Of a DNA stretch of 64,000 nucleotides, positions 2,627 to 35,634 are shown one piece after another. The DNA is taken from NCBI GenBank assembly GCA_963643035.1, contig CAVIKO010000005.1, forward strand, positions 1,170 to 65,169. The letters run 5' to 3'. Source of the DNA: a bacterium. GTDB lineage: Bacteria; Bacillota; Clostridia; Oscillospirales; CAG-272. The notes under the pieces are model-generated. The model saw nothing but the letters and a program-made list of their open reading frames with translations, had not been told where the DNA came from and searched no databases. The position numbers and the translations under genes were made by a program. Numbering within the stretch: the first letter of the stretch is position 1; each line of letters starts with the position of its first letter.

Positions 2627-5600
2627 TTAGTCAATTCGGATGAAGTTAAGCGGTTCAACCTCGTAGGTCTTGCCGTCTACTTCAGTGGTTACACGGAAGG
2701 AATTGTAGTTGAGGATGAATTTTACGCCGTTTTCGTAGGTCACGAGAACGAGGGTACCGCTGGTAAGCGCGTACTTTTCAGGAACCTCAGCTTCTTCTTC
2801 TTCAGCGACGATCACTTCGCCGAACTCGTTCAGACCGCCGTTGTCGGTAGTCTCTTCATCGTCACCCTTTTCGGTTTCTGCTTCTGCAGCGGCATCTGCT
2901 TCATCGGTTGTGCCGTACTGCTCTGCAAGACGAGCGGCAAGTCTCTCGGCCTTTTCTGCCTTTTCCGCTGCGAGAATTTCCTCTTCTGCGAGAGCTTCCT
3001 CTGCTGCGGCTGCGGCTGCCTCATCGGCTTCCAGTTCGTCATCATCGGGAATCCGTTCGCCGTCGATGAATTCGTGGTCAACGATGTAGGAGGTCTGGAG
3101 ATCGTTGGTCGCGTCATTGAGCTTGTTGTAATATTCCACTACGTCTTCCTTCCAGATTTCGTAGTTGACGGAATAATACTTGCTGTTGGTCATGGATTCC
3201 TTCAGGCGGTTCGTGTTCTGGTAGGACAGCGTGTAGTACAGGGTCGCACCGTTTTCGATGGAACGCAGAATCATTTCATCGACATCGCCTTCCATGTTGA
3301 TGGCGGTACCGGTGAAGATCTTGGAGCCATGGAGAACCATGCCCATGAACGGTACGCATTCGCTTGCCTTTACAAAACGGCTGGAATCGAGAGATACCTC
3401 AACGATGGTATCCGCGTAAGGCAGTGCATACGCGTTTCCGCCGGAGATCATGACGCTCTCATAGTCGTTATCGAGCTGCTGTAAGAATGCCGTGGTGTAT
3501 TCCTTGTTGTCCTCGCGATGGTACGGCTCATCTTCGTCAAAGTCGGAGTTGAGGTCGCTGCCAAGCGTGCCAACGGAAATGTTCGCGTTGCCGTAGGAGA
3601 GGTATTCCGGACCGAACTTCTTATAGAAGCGTTCGTAGGAAACCGGGGATACGCAGAGCGCGAAGGTTCTGTCGAAGGTCTGGGTCGCGGGGTCGTATGC
3701 TCTTCTTCTGGTATAACGGTCGTCGATGGTCTTGATTGCGTCTCTCTTGAGGGAGAAGCCGTCAAACATATCACGGAAGTGGTTATACGCGAAGTCGAAG
3801 TCGGGGTAAACTTTGAAACCGGTCTGGTTTGCATAGGAAACGAGGTCAGAGAATCCATCCGCACCGCCAACGACCTTGTTCCACTTCAGCTTGGCAGGAT
3901 ACGTGTAGTAATCCATGTTGCCGTTGTAGTAACCGGTGAGACGGAAGTTGATGGAACCGGAGACACCCATCTCGGAAAGTTCAGCCTGCATGGTCTTGAT
4001 GTCCTCGAAGGTGGTCAGCGGGGTATCCACTTCTACCGGGAAGGACAGGACGCGTTCCAGAGTCTCGGTGGTACCAAACGTCTCAATGAAGAGCGGCAGG
4101 TTTTCATCGGCGGTTTCCATCTTGGTGATGTAGCCGTTTTCGGTGAAGTAATCGCGGCAGGCGGTCGCCATACCTACATAATCCGCCGCATAGTATTCCT
4201 TGACGCCCTTTTCGGCAGCGACATTTTCGTCGGTCAGGAAGATATACTCAATGCGATAACGTCCTGTGTACTTCCGGTCGGAGGTAACAGTCCAGGAAGC
4301 GGAACCGGATACGGAGATGGAGTCTGCCAGATTGTATTCATCGGAAGGACGAGGTGTGAACTGTGCGTATACGGTGTTGTACGGATGGAGCGTACCGCCG
4401 TGCGCCGTCATCAGCGTGGCAAGCGAATCGCCCTCGGTAATGATAGCGAGATAACCGTTGGAATAGGTCACAGGATCGGACGGAATGCCATTCTTATCCT
4501 CCAACTTTTTCGTGGTGGTTGCGGTATCCGTAGTGGAGGTATCTGCTGCTGCGCTATCGTCTGTCGCGGCTGCCTTGGACTCGAACCTTTCGGGAGCAAG
4601 CTCACCGTAGTTGACCATATTGCCCCATACGGGCCAGCGCATTACCTGAGAGTTGGTACCGCGGATTTCATGATACGCGAAGTCGTCGCCGTACATAATA
4701 CCGGAAATGTTGTAGGTCTGTCCCTTCACATCCTCATAGCGGACGAGTGCGCCCGTACCATCGGGGATGAGAGTGTAACCGGTGTAGGTGTTAGAACCGG
4801 CGTCGAAATACGGGAGGTAAATCAAGGTGTCGAACTGGTATGCGGATTCATCGAATTCGATACTGTTCGCCGGGCAGCTAACGGAAATGCCGTTTTCGGT
4901 GATGCTGTATTCGAGTGCGATACGGAAACGCGGCGGAGCGGCATCTGCGCCCTCATAGCCTGTTTCGCTGTGGTCTGCGTCGAGCTCTTCATAGGTGTAG
5001 GTCGGGCAGTACTGCTTGATGATTTCCTCAAGCTCACGAAGCTCTCTGGCTTTGATTTCCGGGTCGCACACATACACTGCCATTTCCAGCGTAATCGGGA
5101 ATTTGGACTGCATCTCGATGATACCGCGCTCTGTCAGAGTCGGGTCGGACGGGTCCTTCTTGGTATAGAAGGAGACGAGCTTTTCACGAAGCCAGTCATT
5201 TTCGATCTGGGAAAGGATGAGTTCTTCAAAACGTTCCACACGAATCATACGGGGAACGAGACGGATGGTCTGCTGTTCACCAAGTGTGTATTCCACACGC
5301 ATACCACCCTTGATGTTCTTACGGGTGATCTGCCCGCGAAGAGCAGCTTCAGTGTATGAATACATTTTCTTGGACACGTCGTTATCTTTATAGTTGATAA
5401 TGACCTGGGAGAGCAGTTCTTCCTTTACCGCAGAGGATGCGGTAGTTTGGGAAACGTCAATTGGGTTGGAGAAGTGTACCTGACCGGAAGCGGTATCCAC
5501 AATGGCAACCTCGCCTGTGAATTCCTCAAACCACATCTGGTAACCCTTTTCCTCCTTGACAAGGATCATATCGGCGAGCTTCTGCTCAGGATTGGCGTAG

Positions 5601-13075: not shown

Positions 13076-13755
13076 ATAACCTTCCTCCTGCTTGTTTTTG
13101 GGACTTTGGCAATTCACTCCGTACCGGATATTCCGGCAGTCTGGACTGTGTATACGCCGCTGTCCGCCCTCACTTGGGGAATTTGTTTCGTGCCTCCGTG
13201 CATGATTTTGCCGCCATCCACCTCCTAAAGGCAGACACCTGACGCCGCGATCCGCTGAGACATCGCACCATCGACAATCGTTTCGCATCCGCCGGACGAA
13301 TCATTCCGCCATTCGCCAGACGAACACTCGTCGCACGATCTTTCGTCGCACGAATTTTCCGCTTCTCGATCGTACCGTAAAGGTACCCGGTGCGTAGCAT
13401 AAGATACGGAGGCGCAAACAAATTGCTCCGGACAGCTTTTTTTCTTCTGAAACGAACACATTCGCCGTATTCCATGCGGTAAATCCGCGTTTCGTCCGGT
13501 TTCCTTTCGCCAAACCTCCATCGGTAAACGGTCCCGATCGATTTTAGCGCGCAAGATCCCCGACTTCCCGCCGACTCACAGCCTTCAGACGAAAAAAAGG
13601 CATCCGAGCAGCATTGCGTCCCAAGTACCGGGAGAGCCACATGCCATAGGGTCCGCCTCGCAGATCCGCACAGTGACCGTTTTGCGGTCGTTCCGTGACG
13701 GGATTCTGCGGTTCGAAGGCCGCAAACTGGTCTCCCCCCGTATTTATATGCCATA

Positions 13756-14320: not shown

Positions 14321-15466
14321 TCAGTCCCTCAACAGTCGATGTACCTGATTCATCACAATCTCTGCCGCACGCTCCACATCCGCCGCCGTGTTGCCCTGTC
14401 CGAATGACAGCCGGAGCATGGTTCGTGCGATCTCCGGTGGGTATCCCATGGAAAGAAGCACCGCGGACGGCTCTGTACTTCCGCTGTGGCACGCAGCTCC
14501 CGGAGATGCCGCCAATCCCGCCATAGTGAGAGAGAGCGCGAGATTTTCCCCGGTAACACCGCGCCGTGCCAGAGACGGAAACACAAGACAGTGGGTGGCG
14601 CCGATCCGTTCCGCCGCTTCTCCGGGGATAACGAGATCTTGTATCGCATCGTGCAGGGTGTTCTCCAGTCTTGTACCGCTCTCATACACTGTTGTAAATT
14701 TCCGGCGATCCTTTACCGCAGATGCAAACGCCGCTGCCAACGGGAATGATTCCGTACCGCCTCGCATACCGGATTCCTGACCGCCACCCGTGATGGGAGA
14801 ATACCGCGCGAGATCCCCCCGCAGATAGAGCAGACCGATTCCAAGCGGACCGCCGCATTTGTGTGCCGCCACTGCAAATCCATCCACGTACGGCGCGAGT
14901 GCGGCGGGATCGCGATGAGGAGCGTATGCCACAGCGTCCGTGAAGAAATACGCATCGTGGGCATGGGCAAAAGCGGCAAGTGCGCGAATCGGCATGACGG
15001 TTCCGATCTCGTTCTGCGCTGCCATCGTGGTACACAGTCCTGTGTCCGCCGTCCAGACCGATGCAATAGCGTCCGCAGTGACTGTTCCGTTTGGACCGAC
15101 AGGTGCAACGCGGATCGAGAACCCCTCCCGAACGAGAGCGTCGCAGGCGGCGACCACGGCAGGATGCTCTGCGGCAGAACGGACGATGGTGCGCTTTCCC
15201 CGTTCTGCAGCGGCATGAGCGAGAGTATGGATGGCGATATAATCGGATTCTGTGCCGCCGGATGTAAAATACGTATCCTCAGGAGAAATCCCACACCACG
15301 CGGCGAGGACATGGCGCGCATCGGACAAAATCGCGGCAGCGCGTTCCCCGAATGGGTGGAGGGAGGAGGGATTACCAATTGTCTCGTCGGTGTCGAGAAG
15401 ATGGCGCAACGTATCGCGGGCAGCGGGTGAGAGAGGGGCATGGGCGGCATAATCGGCGTAAATCAT
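14321..15466 (-). CDS. cysteine desulfurase, class V aminotransferase (NifS-like)
   Basis: The ORF track start at 15478 is GTG. The ATG at 15466 (MIYADYAAHAPL...) has SD GAAAGGTG and matches the MIYLDNAATT start of the paralog at 30399-31583. Conserved SAHKxxGP-type motif (AAHKCGGPLG). Confidence 0.9.
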   Translation of the reverse strand: MIYADYAAHAPLSPAARDTLRHLLDTDETIGNPSSLHPFGERAAAILSDARHVLAAWCGISPEDTYFTSGGTESDYIAIHTLAHAAAERGKRTIVRSAAEHPAVVAACDALVREGFSIRVAPVGPNGTVTADAIASVWTADTGLCTTMAAQNEIGTVMPIRALAAFAHAHDAYFFTDAVAYAPHRDPAALAPYVDGFAVAAHKCGGPLGIGLLYLRGDLARYSPITGGGQESGMRGGTESFPLAAAFASAVKDRRKFTTVYESGTRLENTLHDAIQDLVIPGEAAERIGATHCLVFPSLARRGVTGENLALSLTMAGLAASPGAACHSGSTEPSAVLLSMGYPPEIARTMLRLSFGQGNTAADVERAAEIVMNQVHRLLRD

Positions 15467-15502
15467 AGAGGAATGCACCTTTCGCTGTGAGATTTCCTAC
15501 CT

Positions 15503-15531
15503 ATTATATACGATTCGTGCGAAAAGTGCAA
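15503..15531 (-). promoter_or_regulatory. promoter of the cysteine desulfurase gene
   Basis: Minus strand TTGCAC-17 nt-TATAAT. The -35 ends 4 nt from the first tandem-repeat unit. Confidence 0.5.
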
Positions 15532-15535
15532 TAGC

Positions 15536-15973
15536 GAGTGGGAATACTGTGCAGCAGATTTGTAGAGCAATCCATCCCACTCTCGAGAATTTCCTTGACA
15601 GGAAATTCTCCAAGGTTTGGTTTGACAACAGAGTGGGAATACTGTGCAGCAGATTTGTAGAGCAATCCATCCCACTCTCGAGAATTTCCTTGACAGGAAA
15701 TTCTCCAAGGTTTGGTTTGACAACAGAGTGGGAATACTGTGCAGCAGATTTGTAGAGCAATCCATCCCACTCTCGAGAATTTCCTTGACAGGAAATTCTC
15801 CAAGGTTTGGTTTGACAACAGAGTGGGAATACTGTGCAGCAGATTTGTAGAGCAATCCATCCCACTCTCGAGAATTTCCTTGACAGGAAATTCTCCAAGG
15901 TTTGGTTTGACAACAGAGTGGGAATACTGTGCAGCAGATTTGTAGAGCAATCCATCCCACTCTCGAGAATTTC
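15536..15973. repeat. tandem array of a 95-bp unit, 4 full copies plus a 58-nt partial copy, all identical
   Basis: Units start at 15536, 15631, 15726, 15821 and 15916. Each unit contains GAGTGGGA-N31-TCCCACTC and GAGAATTTCC-TTGACA-GGAAATTCTC. The ORF track shows the 95-nt periodicity (plus-strand ORFs at 15549/15644/15739/15834/15929). Confidence 0.97.
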
Positions 15974-16076
15974 TCTGAAACCGGGCAAATTTCGCTGCTA
16001 TTATGCCTATGCCCACTGTGTGCAAAATCACCGTTTTCTGACCGTGTGCGAATCGGGGAATTGTGGGGAAATCCTA

Positions 16077-16105
16077 TTTCCAAACAGAGCAAATGGTGCT
16101 ATAAT
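16077..16105 (+). promoter_or_regulatory. promoter of the antiporter gene
   Basis: TTTCCA-17 nt-TATAAT with an extended -10 TG (GTGCTATAAT). Confidence 0.5.
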
Positions 16106-16143
16106 AGTACCCGTACATTTTATGAAAAGAAGGGTTTGTTCCT

Positions 16144-17415
16144 ATGACAACGTTACTTGCCTTATCCATTGCTCTGTTTGCGGGGCTATTGATGTCTCGA
16201 TTGACAAAGCTTTGGAATCTGCCCGCCGTAACCGCGTATCTGGTGGCGGGGATCCTGATCGGCCCGTTCTGTCTCGGACGGCTGGGACTGTCGGGCATCG
16301 GATTTATCTCCATGGACGATGTAGGAAAATACGACATTATCTGCGACACCGCGCTCGGCTTTATCGCGTTCGCGATGGGCAATGAATTTCGGCTGGAGGA
16401 TCTGCGCAAAACCGGCAAACAGTCGATTGTGATCGCAATATTTCAGGCGGTAGTCGCGACGATTTTTGTAGATGTGGCGCTGATTATACTCCACTTCCTC
16501 ATGCCGGACAAGCTGCCCTTGTCTGCGGCGATCACACTGGGTGCGGTCGCGACAGCCACGGCCCCTGCGGCGACTCTGATGGTGGTGAAGCAATACAAGG
16601 CGGAAGGGCCGCTTACCCAGATCCTGCTGCCCGTAGTTGCCCTCGATGACGTGGTGGGACTGATCGTATTCGCGATTTCGTTCGGGGTTGCCAAGGCTCT
16701 GGAAAGCGGACACATGGATCTCGTATCGGTGATCGCGGACCCGCTGATCGAAGTATTCGCATCGCTCCTTCTGGGCGCGGTGCTTGGGTATCTCTTCCAC
16801 TTCACGGAGCAGTTCTTTTACTCGCGCAGCAAGCGTATGAGCATCTCTGTGACGTACGTTCTCCTTGCGGTCGCGCTGTCACAGCTGACATTCCAGATCG
16901 GTGCGGTAACGATCGGTTTCTCTTCCCTGCTCGTCTGCATGGCTCTCGGAACGATTTTCTGCAATTTGTGTCCGTTCTCTGAGGAGCTGATGGATCGTGT
17001 GGATCGCTGGACGGGTCCCTTGATGGTGCTGTTCTTCGTTTTGAGCGGTGCGGGGCTTGACTTCGACGTATTCTCCGATCCGGCGATCATTCTTGTAGGG
17101 GTGATCTACATTCTCTTCCGCTCCCTCGGCAAGATCAGCGGTGCCGCAGTTTCGTCCCGGTTCATGCACTGTGAACCGACCGTCCAGAAATATCTCGGCA
17201 TCACGCTTCTCCCGCAGGCGGGCGTATCCCTCGGTATGTCCCTGACCGCGATGTCCCTCGGCACGCCCGGTCTGATCATCCGCAACGTCGCCCTCTTTGC
17301 CGTCCTTGTCTACGAGCTGGTCGGACCCCTTCTGACCCGCATTGCCCTCGACAAAGCCGGTGAGATCCACGAAAAGCCCATTACGGAACGCGAGGCTGCC
17401 AAGAAACAGAAATAA
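16144..17415 (+). CDS. cation:proton antiporter (CPA2 / Kef-type Na+/H+ exchanger family)
   Basis: 423 aa with about 12 TM helices. N-terminus LLALSIALFAGLLMSRLTKLWNLPAVTAYLVAGILIGP is typical of the family. Confidence 0.85.
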   Translation: MTTLLALSIALFAGLLMSRLTKLWNLPAVTAYLVAGILIGPFCLGRLGLSGIGFISMDDVGKYDIICDTALGFIAFAMGNEFRLEDLRKTGKQSIVIAIFQAVVATIFVDVALIILHFLMPDKLPLSAAITLGAVATATAPAATLMVVKQYKAEGPLTQILLPVVALDDVVGLIVFAISFGVAKALESGHMDLVSVIADPLIEVFASLLLGAVLGYLFHFTEQFFYSRSKRMSISVTYVLLAVALSQLTFQIGAVTIGFSSLLVCMALGTIFCNLCPFSEELMDRVDRWTGPLMVLFFVLSGAGLDFDVFSDPAIILVGVIYILFRSLGKISGAAVSSRFMHCEPTVQKYLGITLLPQAGVSLGMSLTAMSLGTPGLIIRNVALFAVLVYELVGPLLTRIALDKAGEIHEKPITEREAAKKQK

Positions 17416-17690: not shown

Positions 17691-18653
17691 TCACTTGCCA
17701 AGTACTCCTGCGCCGATGATACCCGCGTCGTTGCCGAGTTTGGCAATGAGGATCTGTGTGCGGGGGGTACCCTCTCTCGTGTAGGTTTCGCCCCATACCT
17801 TTTCAAGCAGCGGCTTCATGAGGTAGTCGCCCTCGTTGCATACGCCGCCGCCGATGGACAGCACGTTCGGCTGGAAGATATTGATCATATTGACAATACC
17901 GCAGGAGAGATAGCTGATGTACTCGTCCACAACCTCTGCGCCGACCTCGTCGCCCTGCTTCATGGCGTTGAACGCGGTACGTGCGCTGACCTTGGACAGA
18001 TCACCGCCGATCATGTCTTCCATGGCGGTCTTTTTGCCTGCCGCTCTTGCCGCCACGATGTGATCCTTCGTGATGTTGACGAGACCTGTAGCGGAGCTGT
18101 ACGCTTCCCAGCAGCCCTTTCTGCCGCAGGAGCACTGTCTGCCGTCCTTCTGGATGACAACGTGACCAAGCTCTGCGCCCGCGAAATTGAAACCGGTATA
18201 AACCTTGCCGTCGATGATGATACCGCCGCCGACACCGGTGCCGAGGGTGATCATCACGGAGATGGGCGCACCTGCAGCCACACCCGCAATCGCCTCTGCC
18301 TTTGCTGCGGCGTTCGCGTCGTTTTCGATATAGACCTTCTTACCGTCGAGCTGTGCGGAAAGCCGCTCTGCCAGAGGGTACTGTAAGAACGGGATGTTAT
18401 TCGCATATTCGACCACGCCGGTCACATTGTTCGCGGTGCCGGGGGTAGCCACGCCGACGGATTCGATGTCGTCAAGGGACAGTCCCTCCTCCGCGATGAG
18501 CTTTTTGCACAGGGCTGCCATATCCTCAATGATGGGATCCGCGCCGCGTTCCGGCTTGGTGGGTACGCTGCCCTTTCTGACGATTTCGTACTTGTCGTTG
18601 ACGATGCCGATGGCGATATTGGTACCGCCGAGATCCACGCCGATTGTATACAT
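17691..18653 (-). CDS. glcK: ROK-family glucokinase
   Basis: MYTIGVDLGGTN start (ATG at 18653, SD AGGCAGGA; the ORF track extends to 18683). ROK zinc motif CSCGRKGCWEAY. Confidence 0.9.
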   Translation of the reverse strand: MYTIGVDLGGTNIAIGIVNDKYEIVRKGSVPTKPERGADPIIEDMAALCKKLIAEEGLSLDDIESVGVATPGTANNVTGVVEYANNIPFLQYPLAERLSAQLDGKKVYIENDANAAAKAEAIAGVAAGAPISVMITLGTGVGGGIIIDGKVYTGFNFAGAELGHVVIQKDGRQCSCGRKGCWEAYSSATGLVNITKDHIVAARAAGKKTAMEDMIGGDLSKVSARTAFNAMKQGDEVGAEVVDEYISYLSCGIVNMINIFQPNVLSIGGGVCNEGDYLMKPLLEKVWGETYTREGTPRTQILIAKLGNDAGIIGAGVLGK

Positions 18654-20375: not shown

Positions 20376-21872
20376 TCAGTCACCAATATATGCCGTGGTA
20401 AACTTTTCCATTTCGGTTGCAATCTTCTTCTGATAGGATTCGTAGGAGGATATAACGCTCTTCGTATTGGTCGTGATCAGATTTGTCAGCACATAGTTCG
20501 GCCAGGTACCGATGTCGTAGATGTCGCCGAGGTCATAGATGCGGTTGGCAAAAATCAGATCCACCATAGCATCGGAATCCACGTCGCGCGTTGCCTTTCC
20601 TTTGAGCGTGGTGTCGTAGTACGCTGGTGTCACCGTATACAAAGACTCTGCGGACAGCGCTTCCACGAGGATGCCGGTGCGCTCGATGTTCTGCACGGAA
20701 ATCGGGATTCCCAGCAGTGCCGTGGTATGGCGGCTTACAAGGCTTGCGTACTGTGTCTGCTGCTCGTTGTACTTCGGGATCGGAAGAATCCCAAACGGCG
20801 CGTCCATATCGCGCAGAGCAAGCACGTCATCAAACCGGCTCCAGAAGAAGAGTCCGTGACCGTTCAGGAACAGTTCCCGGAACGGCGTATCATCTACGGG
20901 TTCTGCATCCTGACTGCCGCGGTGCTGGTCATAGATGGACGTCTCGTCGCTCATCATTTCCTGCACCTTTTGCAGTATCTCTATGTTCCGTCCCTCCTTG
21001 AAGGAATCGGACAGCGTGTTGTCCGCGTTCTTTGTGATAAACGTGCCGCCCGCGCCGAAATATACGCAGTATCCGGCATCGCGCTTACTCAAAAATCCCC
21101 AGAGATCATCGAGCGTCATTTTGCCGTCTCCGTTGAGATCCGTTGTGACGGTTTCGTAAATCGCCTTCATCCGGTCCATTGTCCACGCGCCGTCCGATAC
21201 AATGGTGTAGAGATCCTCAACTCCGTAATCCTTCGCTATATCCTTGTTGAACAGGATCGCGGAGGTCGCGTTTTTATCCTCTACGGAAATCGCCGCAGAC
21301 GCCATGCGCAGCGTATCGCCGACCGATAGGGCTTCCACGCTGTTCTGATCCCACCATGGCATATCCAGTTCCAGATACGGCACGTCATAGAGATTGTACA
21401 GAAGTCCGTCCGTTACCATCGCCGTCGATGAGGTCAACACCTGATACGCAATATCGTAGGTGTCATCCCCGGACTGCACCATCTTTTTGACCATCGGGTT
21501 TACATCCGCGTATTCCAGCTGGTATTTGATATTGTATGTATCCGCAATCAACGCGTTCCGGTTGTAAACAGCATCGTTCAGAGCGTCTCCGGTCAGCTCG
21601 TCCACACAAAAGTCGTTCACAAGACGGGATTTCCAGTCATCGCTAATCTTCCAGTGGACGGCGGAAAAGGTGTATCCCTCGTAATCCTGCACCGGTACTT
21701 CGGGTTTCAGCCGTTCGGTTTCCGTCTCCGTCTCCGCGACTGTCTCCGTCTCCGCCGCAGCAACCGTTTCTGTCTGCTCGTCCACAGCTTTCTCACCGCA
21801 GCCCGCAATGCATGGTGTGAGCATCAAAAACACCAGTATCCAGATAAGAAAGCTCTTTCGATTACGCCTCAT
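20376..21872 (-). CDS. orphan ABC-type solute-binding lipoprotein, paralog 1
   Basis: ATG at 21872 (MRRNRKSFLIWILVFLMLTPCIAGCG, lipobox IAGC) with SD AAAGGAG. Paralogous to 34138-35634 and 38429-39895 (shared LTGDxLNDAxYNR, DGAWTxD, DxNGDG). Confidence 0.85.
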   Translation of the reverse strand: MRRNRKSFLIWILVFLMLTPCIAGCGEKAVDEQTETVAAAETETVAETETETERLKPEVPVQDYEGYTFSAVHWKISDDWKSRLVNDFCVDELTGDALNDAVYNRNALIADTYNIKYQLEYADVNPMVKKMVQSGDDTYDIAYQVLTSSTAMVTDGLLYNLYDVPYLELDMPWWDQNSVEALSVGDTLRMASAAISVEDKNATSAILFNKDIAKDYGVEDLYTIVSDGAWTMDRMKAIYETVTTDLNGDGKMTLDDLWGFLSKRDAGYCVYFGAGGTFITKNADNTLSDSFKEGRNIEILQKVQEMMSDETSIYDQHRGSQDAEPVDDTPFRELFLNGHGLFFWSRFDDVLALRDMDAPFGILPIPKYNEQQTQYASLVSRHTTALLGIPISVQNIERTGILVEALSAESLYTVTPAYYDTTLKGKATRDVDSDAMVDLIFANRIYDLGDIYDIGTWPNYVLTNLITTNTKSVISSYESYQKKIATEMEKFTTAYIGD

Positions 21873-34137: not shown

Positions 34138-35634
34138 ATGAACAGACGTCTGACCGCTCTGTTGATTGCTATTCTGACCGCACTGCCGCTGACAGCCTGC
34201 GGGAATACAACAACTAGTGAAAGCGACACCACTCCCACGATTCAGACAGATACCGCACCGGAAACCGAACCAACGGAAACCGAACCATCCTATGATCCGG
34301 GGCTTGCAGCCGTGGATTACAGCGGCACAGATTTTGTCATTCTCTACAACTATGGCAACGCCCTTGAGCCAAACAAGGACTTTGTGGGTGAAACGCTGAC
34401 CGGTGAAATCGTCAACGATGCCGTATACAACCGTACGATTGCGCTTGAGGAGAAATACAAGCTCAAAATGACATACACGGAATGCCAGGGAGACAGCGCA
34501 GTCGCAACTATGCTGCAAAAAGCCGTGACCGCCGGGGACTCCACCTACGCCGGTGCAGACATGAACGCGCAATTCTGTGTACAGCAGGCAAGCAAAGGCA
34601 CGCTTCTGGAACTGCATCAGCTTCCGAATATAGATTTATCGAAGCCCTATTGGAGCGATACCATGCTTTCCGGCAGTTCCATTAAAGGGAAGAATTACTT
34701 CGCCTTCTCGGACATCAACATTCACGCATACGGCGCCACTCCCTGTATTATTTTCAATAAAGTGGTACACCAAAACCACCAGCTGGAAGATCTCTACGAA
34801 ATCGTTTTGGACGGTCACTGGACTTTTGACAAGGCGTGCGAAATGATTTCCGCGGTAACCTCCGATCTGGATGGCGACGGTAAGATTACAAAAGACGACA
34901 GACTCGGCCTGATCGCAAACAACTTCTGCGTGGACTGCTTCATCTCCGGCACCGGCTACCAGATGATCGGCAAGGATGAAAACGACCTGCCGGTGCTACA
35001 AATGTATAGCGAGGAATTTGCCGACATCATGGATGGCATCAAAAAATTGCTGTCTGTAGAGACCGGATCGTTCTTGGTGGACAGAACCAGCACCGAAACA
35101 GAGGCCAGAGAATACTGGACGGAATGGGCAATCACGGAAGATCGTGCATTATTCTGGGTTGGTAATATAAAATGTGTGGAACGGATGCGCCAATCCGAGT
35201 CTGACTTTGGTGTCGTTCCCATGCCTAAGGCAAATGAAAATCAACAGAACTACGCCATTCACACGCAGGCAAATATCGGTACTGTGCTCTGTTTCCCGGC
35301 AATCGTTGCAGACACGGATATGGTCAGCCGCGTAATGGAGGATATGGCATACATCTCGTACATGACCGTCATGCCGGCATACATGGACGTATGCATAGAT
35401 GGAAAATCCATACGGGACGAAGAATCGCTCGCATGCCTGGAAATCATCCGCAATTCGTATTACTGTGACCTTGGCTTCATGTGCCAGCAGATGAACGTGA
35501 ACATCCTCGGCACCATGCGCGATTACGTCACCGCGAACCGTTCGGATTTCATGTCCAGTATGGAGAAAAAATCAAACACTTGGAGTAAGGCAGTGGAAAA
35601 AATCGCCGCGGCGTTCTCGGAAACTGCCGAATAA
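34138..35634 (+). CDS. orphan ABC-type solute-binding lipoprotein, paralog 2
   Basis: ATG at 34138 (MNRRLTALLIAILTALPLTACG, lipobox LTAC). Thr/Glu/Pro linker. Shares the paralog motifs. Confidence 0.85.
   Translation: MNRRLTALLIAILTALPLTACGNTTTSESDTTPTIQTDTAPETEPTETEPSYDPGLAAVDYSGTDFVILYNYGNALEPNKDFVGETLTGEIVNDAVYNRTIALEEKYKLKMTYTECQGDSAVATMLQKAVTAGDSTYAGADMNAQFCVQQASKGTLLELHQLPNIDLSKPYWSDTMLSGSSIKGKNYFAFSDINIHAYGATPCIIFNKVVHQNHQLEDLYEIVLDGHWTFDKACEMISAVTSDLDGDGKITKDDRLGLIANNFCVDCFISGTGYQMIGKDENDLPVLQMYSEEFADIMDGIKKLLSVETGSFLVDRTSTETEAREYWTEWAITEDRALFWVGNIKCVERMRQSESDFGVVPMPKANENQQNYAIHTQANIGTVLCFPAIVADTDMVSRVMEDMAYISYMTVMPAYMDVCIDGKSIRDEESLACLEIIRNSYYCDLGFMCQQMNVNILGTMRDYVTANRSDFMSSMEKKSNTWSKAVEKIAAAFSETAE

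Follow-up and report, generated by a model that had tools for sequence, protein, structure and literature searches.

Tandem array between two divergent genes

The spacer between two divergently oriented genes, one for a class-V aminotransferase and the other for a cation:proton antiporter, contains identical hairpin-forming units in direct tandem, and it has to be asked whether this array controls the neighboring promoters, encodes small RNAs, or is a variable repeat that came to lie between them. The first-pass annotation, made from the letters alone, had proposed all three. We analyzed the array in the window, that is, the whole stretch of 64,000 nucleotides under study, and compared it with its relatives in other genomes. 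The features are listed below in window coordinates.

14321-15466, minus strand: gene for a class-V aminotransferase, cysteine desulfurase-like (Pfam PF00266, E = 2e-44)
15503-15531, minus strand: putative aminotransferase promoter TTGCAC-17-TATAAT (read from the sequence; kept in element-free relatives)
15532-16017, no strand: whole insertion relative to the sister species (empty-site alignment, 23 empty-site loci)
15536-15630, plus strand: unit A1, 95 bp, composed of hairpin P1, hairpin P2 and a tail (TRF; match to covariance model R1, 103 bits)
15536-15582, plus strand: hairpin P1 of unit A1, GAGTGGGA-N31-TCCCACTC (pattern search, fold)
15585-15610, plus strand: hairpin P2 of unit A1, GAGAATTTCC-TTGACA-GGAAATTCTC (pattern search, fold)
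15631-15725, plus strand: unit A2, same sequence as A1 (TRF, pattern searches)
15726-15820, plus strand: unit A3, same sequence as A1 (TRF, pattern searches, covariance model)
15821-15915, plus strand: unit A4, same sequence as A1 (TRF, pattern searches)
15916-16017, plus strand: unit B, the edge unit (full-length covariance-model match; right boundary from the empty-site alignment)
15975-16004, plus strand: candidate outward-facing promoter in unit B, CTGAAA-18-TGcTATTAT (scan, 9 of 12 matches, with TG)
16077-16105, plus strand: putative antiporter promoter TTTCCA-17-TGcTATAAT (consensus scan; kept in relatives)
16144-17415, plus strand: gene for a cation:proton antiporter, Na_H_Exchanger (Pfam PF00999)
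15463-16092, 15497-15988 and 15504-16031, minus strand: ORFs crossing the array (ORF list)
2967-3008, 13320-13359, 18109-18144, 21718-21775 and 34259-34287: short tandem repeats (TRF)

For positions 15536-15973 TRF gave a period of 95, 4.6 copies, 100% matches, no indels and a score of 876. Pattern searches allowing no mismatches found five exact plus-strand copies of the 47-nt hairpin-1 segment and four of the 26-nt hairpin-2 segment, with none in shuffled sequences; the offset of P1 is constant in every unit of the array and that of P2 in units A1-A4. A single unit is predicted to fold into two hairpins (-32.1 kcal/mol, z = -3.2), and its reverse strand folds about equally well. TRF, the pattern searches and the fold bear out the earlier description of a perfect array of 4.6 two-hairpin units of 95 bp, and a count in the sequence agrees with the two TTGACA hexamers reported per full unit, eight in all over 380 bp.

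The right end of the array had to be revised. The last copy had been read as truncated, but the family covariance model matches positions 15913-16020 over its full length (68.8 bits), so that this copy is a complete edge unit with a decayed second hairpin, and in the empty-site alignment the 44 nt past 15973 (TCTGAAACC...GCCCAC) are part of the insertion. Unit B has the same P1 as the A units, and its P2' (GAGAATTT..AAATTTCGC) and tail' (TGCTATTATGCCTATGCCCAC) are decayed. As assembled, the array is A-A-A-A-B, four identical A units and one diverged B unit. Since the insertion reaches 16017, the distance to the -35 box of the antiporter is about 60 nt and not the approximately 100 nt given before, while at the other end the reported 4 nt are correct (TTGCAC at 15526-15531, first unit at 15536).

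The promoters assigned to the two genes are plausible, and both sequences are kept in element-free sister species; TTGCAC-17-TATAAT would serve the aminotransferase gene, the start of which is most likely the ATG at 15466 and not the GTG at 15478 of the mechanical ORF list. No aminotransferase product with exactly the GTG start is on record. A consensus scan of the window detected neither a convincing plus-strand promoter upstream of the array nor a terminator after it. At 15502-15509 (TATTATAT) the minus-strand TATAAT overlaps a plus-strand TATTAT, and such a symmetric -10 box could fire both ways, which would lead to transcription of the array towards the antiporter gene. The outward extended -10 box in unit B is a weak and speculative candidate.

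The five further short low-copy tandem repeats that TRF reported in the window (periods 15-24, 1.9-2.7 copies) are probably coding or chance repeats. A scan for tRNA and tmRNA genes found none.

The array is absent from sister species

Twenty three loci of sister species contain the same two genes, both promoters and a 193-bp spacer from which the element is absent; their flanks have 80-86% DNA identity to the window, and the antiporters have 88-94.6% protein identity. The covariance-model search detected no family copies in 27 sister-species loci, and the site is empty in all 20 loci examined for the cluster members P0122 and P0125. Closer strains for counting copies were not found among the other members of the antiporter cluster, all of them being at most 94.6% identical.

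The insertion measures 482 bp (15536-16017). The empty site reads GCAA-GAGTG-TGTGCAAAA, and the spacer ...AAAGTGCAA-GAGTG-TGTGCAAAATC... is present in 21 of the 23 aligned spacers, with a close variant in the other two. The empty site has a single GAGTG, the motif that also forms the first five bases of the element and that recurs at the 3' end of several single copies; the right junction in the window is CACTG. A short recombination core, microhomology or a target-site duplication may lie behind this recurrence.

Two GTGCAA motifs lie 6 nt apart in the element-free spacer (GTGCAAGAGTGTGTGCAA; empty sites L029 and L033-L052). In the window the same motifs are found at 15526-15531 and 16020-16025, 488 bp apart through the insertion. 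One of them is the -35 box of the aminotransferase promoter on the opposite strand, and the pair could be an operator.

The unit belongs to a dispersed family

A scan of species-representative genomes with the pattern GTGGGA-N27-35-TCCCACTCTCGAGAATTT identified 13 loci in four MAG species: an uncultured Ruminococcus (10 contigs hit), a second Ruminococcus, a Eubacteriales MAG and a Clostridia MAG. The dispersal counts therefore read as at least four Clostridia/Ruminococcus MAG species and 10 or more contigs in one MAG. A looser pattern yielded nine metagenome contigs, profile searches over the collected loci gave 64 nhmmer hits and 47 covariance-model hits, and the richest MAG has two or three family clusters per 8 kb. 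In the 64-kb window itself a covariance-model search with filters off detected no copies besides the array. The first-pass annotation had named a common dispersed repeat as the outcome that would speak against its reading, and with 13 loci and 64 nhmmer hits this is essentially what the unit has turned out to be.

The units of the family are modular, composed of hairpin P1, hairpin P2, which varies in length, and a tail, and are about 95-130 nt long (95-99 nt with the usual short hairpin 2). They occur singly, as 1.5-2 copies or in longer arrays that are sometimes mixed; tandem clusters contain 4.7 units at locus L006, 4.6 at L007, three at L008 and 1.5-2 at many others. In two of these clusters, two unit types alternate to give a higher-order repeat (194 bp x 2.2 at 99% in L006; 201 bp x 2.3 at 96% in L007). 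Different species share orthologous arrays (L007/L008 and L006/L012). In some arrays the units are of several kinds, differing in their P1 sequences or carrying a long P2 of about 130 nt, the latter having two inner hairpins (CAAACATC..GATGTTTG and TTGCC..GGCAA); judged by this composition, mixed arrays are beyond the reach of simple slippage. Such arrays were observed at L005 1-520, L009 3340-3732 and L011 5150-5500. Runs of N (scaffold gaps) lie inside the repeat arrays at L010 2178-2277 and L011 about 1675-1773, and several contigs end in the repeat.

The search of Rfam 15 gave no hit in the window at the gathering threshold, and relaxing the cutoff to E <= 10 for positions 15400-16150 brought up nothing relevant; the sole hit among 20 related loci was an unrelated NiCo riboswitch. 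The latter (L004 1475-1576, minus strand, 71 bits) is located upstream of a CDF cation-efflux gene, the 3' UTR of which carries a repeat unit followed by a strong terminator. BLASTN against phage and plasmid collections and two pattern scans of viral contigs yielded no match, and a literature search by topic and by sequence string found no description of the repeat.

Both hairpins are conserved by compensatory changes

In the first alignment, comprising 29 units, P1 was invariant and P2 had compensatory changes in eight of ten pairs. P1 covaries between subfamilies (GUGGGA/UCCCAC, CGGCGG/CCGCCG, GCGGG/CCCGC, GCGAG/CUCGC). In the alignment of 46 distinct sequences, which was fitted to the model while the subfamily stems are also readable directly in the raw sequences, 96% of the cells are paired and changes on both sides are seen in 15 of 19 pairs. 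None of 500 shuffles reached the observed pairing and covariation, and sliding the 3' partners reduced the pairing to 38-62%.

On the plus strand, G.U pairs outnumber A.C pairs (20 vs 6), which indicates that the structured strand is the plus strand, either as RNA or as single-stranded DNA. GTAG is confined to some P1 loops. Inspection by eye for pairing of the P1 loop with the tail, as in a pseudoknot, gave no consistent covariation. The K-turn, sarcin-ricin, hammerhead-like and CsrA-type motifs were also compared with P1 by eye, and none of them fits.

Family copies lie mainly at the ends of unrelated genes

The genes next to family copies are unrelated: they include genes for CDF efflux, two orthologous GH43 genes, guaA, and genes for CBM9, a histidine kinase, rubrerythrin, DUF1508 and solute-binding (SBP) lipoproteins. 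In about 17 of the 22 informative loci the upstream ORF is co-oriented with the element and ends 0-26 nt inside it, and the 5' part of the unit holds stops in all three frames (TGA, TAA and TGA/TAG). Between genes of the same direction, six copies are in sense and one is in antisense orientation (L013 3974-4113). Eight or more loci have a canonical terminator on the strand of the element, 35-93 nt past the end of the element or array, and these sense copies, lying between stop codon and terminator, are therefore in 3' UTRs. A few copies are located in leaders just downstream of a TATAAT box (L009, L014), and divergent spacers harbor copies at L015 and in the window.

The 12 nt at L010 416-427 (minus strand; GAGTGGGAATAA) serve twice, as the last four codons of guaA (E-W-E-stop) and, with full identity, as the start of the element, and the C-terminus of GMP synthase at this locus (..VEWE-stop) is conserved. 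The identity could reflect target homology, or else hint at the origin of the 5' arm of P1.

Copy number differs between assemblies

Another assembly of the same species (GCA_963629385.1, L001) has A-B at the locus, with flanks 99.7-99.9% identical and two SNPs in A-B, one per P1 loop. Related genomes thus differ both in the presence of the element (filled vs 23 empty sites) and in its copy number (A-B vs A4-B), the copy-number comparisons resting on short-read assemblies, which collapse or break at perfect tandem repeats. Since short-read assemblers collapse perfect repeats, the count in L001 is a lower bound. In two Logan contigs, assembled from other samples, the sequence breaks off exactly one k-mer into the part of unit B that is shared; these ends, as read from the contigs, show a branch of the assembly graph at unit B and are uninformative on copy number. 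The arrays of L006 and L012 differ from each other, as do those of L007 and L008, likewise in short-read assemblies.

Among the three readings proposed earlier, a hypervariable VNTR is the best supported, given A-B vs A-A-A-A-B at this locus, the identity of the inner units beside a decayed edge unit, and the recurrent duplications in the family. The accompanying suggestion, that the array changes promoter spacing or phase, would concern promoters that were already present in the element-free sister species.

Origin of the array and alternative explanations

It is probable that the array is a locally amplified insertion of a dispersed BOX/MIRU/REP-like hairpin repeat and not a device for promoter control. 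The family has dispersed intergenic copies per genome beside unrelated genes, with conserved stem-loop potential, as is characteristic of interspersed repeats. An ancestral A-B dimer would have landed in, or recombined into, the pre-existing spacer between the divergent promoters after the split from the sister species. The identical P1 segments would then have allowed unequal homologous recombination or replication slippage, through which unit A rose to four identical copies; amplification between these segments would explain the perfect inner units and the decayed outer half of B. This amplification may be recent, with continuing exchange homogenizing the inner units and leaving the outer half of unit B to drift. 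The spacer between divergent promoters may have been one of the few places where an insertion in either orientation is harmless. Possible side effects would be displacement of the upstream context of the aminotransferase -35 box, separation of the GTGCAA motifs and weak outward activity of the extended -10 box in unit B. The family presumably is or was mobile, as suggested by one comparison of a filled with an empty site between species that differ by 14-20% in DNA; a mobilizing enzyme, inverted repeats at the termini of the whole element and a clean target-site duplication were not found. A dedicated regulatory function at this locus seems not to exist, and none is required to account for the observations. 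The array is ordinary for such families and most likely represents a recent, probably neutral expansion between two promoters that work in the sister species without it.

The strongest observations against a plain repeat concern RNA. Hairpins and single-stranded motifs conserved across species, together with a near-exclusive sense orientation, would also fit a functional RNA, and orthologous arrays appear to persist longer than expected for pure junk. The family could accordingly be a functional strand-specific RNA module, acting in cis in UTRs (for example by blocking 3' exonucleases, modulating translation termination with a hairpin at the stop codon, or serving as a weak terminator) or processed to unit-length RNAs, and the window array would be its multi-copy version transcribed towards the antiporter gene. 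This agrees with the covariation in both hairpins, the excess of G.U over A.C pairs on the plus strand, the sense placement from stop codon to terminator, the copies directly 3' of TATAAT promoters in L009 and L014, and the arrays kept at orthologous positions across species; in one subfamily, the CAZWLL copies, P2 and the tail resemble a terminator, which is not the case in the window. However, the window offers this module neither a convincing plus-strand promoter upstream nor a terminator after the array, the neighbor genes have no common function, the same genes and promoters are kept in the element-free sister species, and covariation and strand asymmetry are equally expected of single-stranded DNA hairpins in transposition or recombination, so that we regard a functional RNA module as possible but unlikely. 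The earlier proposal of an array of small structured RNAs is half right: the two-hairpin fold is conserved with covariation and lies in sense orientation in transcripts, but in the window the unit lacks a promoter and a terminator of its own, and the family is dispersed beside unrelated genes. An array of stand-alone sRNA genes is not supported, as in the consensus scan neither the units nor the sequence directly upstream of them held a promoter-like or terminator-like site. A type III toxin-antitoxin (ToxI-like) array does not fit either, the flanking genes encoding Aminotran_5 and Na_H_Exchanger proteins and the family being dispersed. Somewhat less likely than the RNA module is a broader reading, in which the window array would be highly active or recently active and the family is either an undescribed strand-specific element with a single-strand form or a widespread 3'-UTR RNA module of Ruminococcus-like bacteria. 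Such an element may use a GAGTG-like core at gene ends, may move in the manner of integron attC sites or IS200/IS605, or via an RNA intermediate, and may build mixed arrays by successive site-specific insertions; an RNA module of this kind may genuinely contribute to translation termination or to the fate of mRNAs.

The remaining explanations are still less likely. That the four perfect copies are an assembly artefact, the true state being an A-B dimer, is suggested by the presence of only A-B in L001 and by the contigs from two other samples, which stop at a k-mer boundary inside the repeat, but perfect tandem repeats collapse or break in short-read assembly and are rarely inflated, and tandem amplification is common in the family; we consider an artefact improbable. 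A DNA-level operator, decoy or "-35 sponge", which would titrate RNA polymerase or a regulator and control both divergent promoters, could be seen in the eight TTGACA hexamers within 380 bp, the palindromes in each unit and the start of the array 4 nt from a -35 box. This proposal of the first-pass annotation did not survive comparison with the family, as TTGACA is peculiar to the variant in the window: the loop of relatives reads GTGACC, ATGACT, CTTTCGG or CGCAAACG, and their tail has TTAACA or other sequences. In addition, the units contain no -10 box at the right spacing, the family resides mostly in 3' UTRs of unrelated genes and not at promoters, and covarying stems of variable length favor a single-strand fold over a duplex binding site, which makes an operator or sponge highly improbable. 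We agree with the earlier exclusion of a CRISPR, as the segments between hairpins do not vary within the array and are kept throughout the family, leaving no unique spacers, and of a coding repeat, the period of 95 not being a multiple of three and the plus strand having 3-9 stops per unit. A repetitive protein might be encoded on the minus strand, which is open in all three frames: an ORF of 209 codons terminates at the aminotransferase start in the overlap ATGA, and the absence of minus-strand stops from the window unit (P of about 6e-4 in dinucleotide-preserving shuffles of unit 15536-15630) is not accounted for by a plain repeat. Minus-strand stops are also absent from five of the eight units of the closest subfamily (L007, L008, L019). 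Nevertheless, a minus-strand protein is scarcely credible, since the period is not a multiple of three, the ORF starts with TTG, has no ribosome-binding site and runs across the aminotransferase promoter, most subfamilies have 2-7 minus-strand stops per unit, and the long minus-strand ORFs of L007 are shadows of real lipoprotein genes.

Comparison with known repeat families

Repeats of this kind matter in practice: they break short-read MAG assemblies and can mislead gene callers through altered C-termini and long shadow ORFs that run through arrays. An influence on mRNA 3' ends across whole genomes is also possible, and the array could serve as a VNTR marker for strain typing.

BOX elements of Streptococcus pneumoniae and S. 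suis have the structure boxA-boxB(n)-boxC with a variable number of tandem internal modules; they are transcribed, have predicted stem-loops, lie in intergenic regions beside unrelated genes and vary in copy number between strains, and large pneumococcal BOX arrays open spurious ORFs (PMC3049150). The family described here is likewise a small modular interspersed repeat of Firmicutes with tandem modules, an array of which opens ORFs. Unlike in BOX, whole units (P1, P2 and tail) are iterated without distinct A and C ends, the orientation is near-exclusively sense, the units abut stop codons and the host clade is different. The resemblance to BOX is thus functional only, taxon and architecture setting the family apart.

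The MIRU VNTRs of Mycobacterium are direct tandem repeats of 46-101 bp, located in intergenic regions of operons, their ends overlapping the stop and start codons on either side. Our family shares with them the unit size, the direct tandem arrangement, the large number of loci, the overlap with the upstream stop codon and copy-number polymorphism, whereas overlap with the downstream start codon is not seen as a rule; the two covarying hairpins, which do not define MIRU, and the taxon also differ.

High-copy extragenic hairpins with conserved structure, located in 3' UTRs between stop codon and terminator, are a feature common to our family and REP/BIME. REP sequences affect mRNA stability, and they affect translation when located within about 15 nt of the stop codon. 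REP units are about 20-40 nt long with a 5' GTAG, alternate in inverted orientation in BIMEs and are associated with RAYT transposases, whereas our units of about 95 nt have two hairpins, stand in direct orientation and lack a conserved 5' GTAG, and so differ from REP/BIME proper. Like the MITEs RUP and Correia, the family is non-autonomous, dispersed, structured and insertion-polymorphic; it would differ from MITEs in that inverted repeats bounding the element as a whole, a clear target-site duplication and a matching IS were not seen, and in forming direct tandem arrays. The sole inverted repeats in the element are the P1 arms inside each unit.

In summary, given the different taxon and the absence of an Rfam match, of inverted alternation, of a conserved 5' GTAG and of whole-element terminal inverted repeats, the array in the window is best assigned to a new family of small interspersed structured repeats, which appears to lie outside BOX, MIRU and REP/BIME proper. 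The family appears to be undescribed, is present in high copy in at least one MAG and comes from poorly studied gut and rumen Clostridia.
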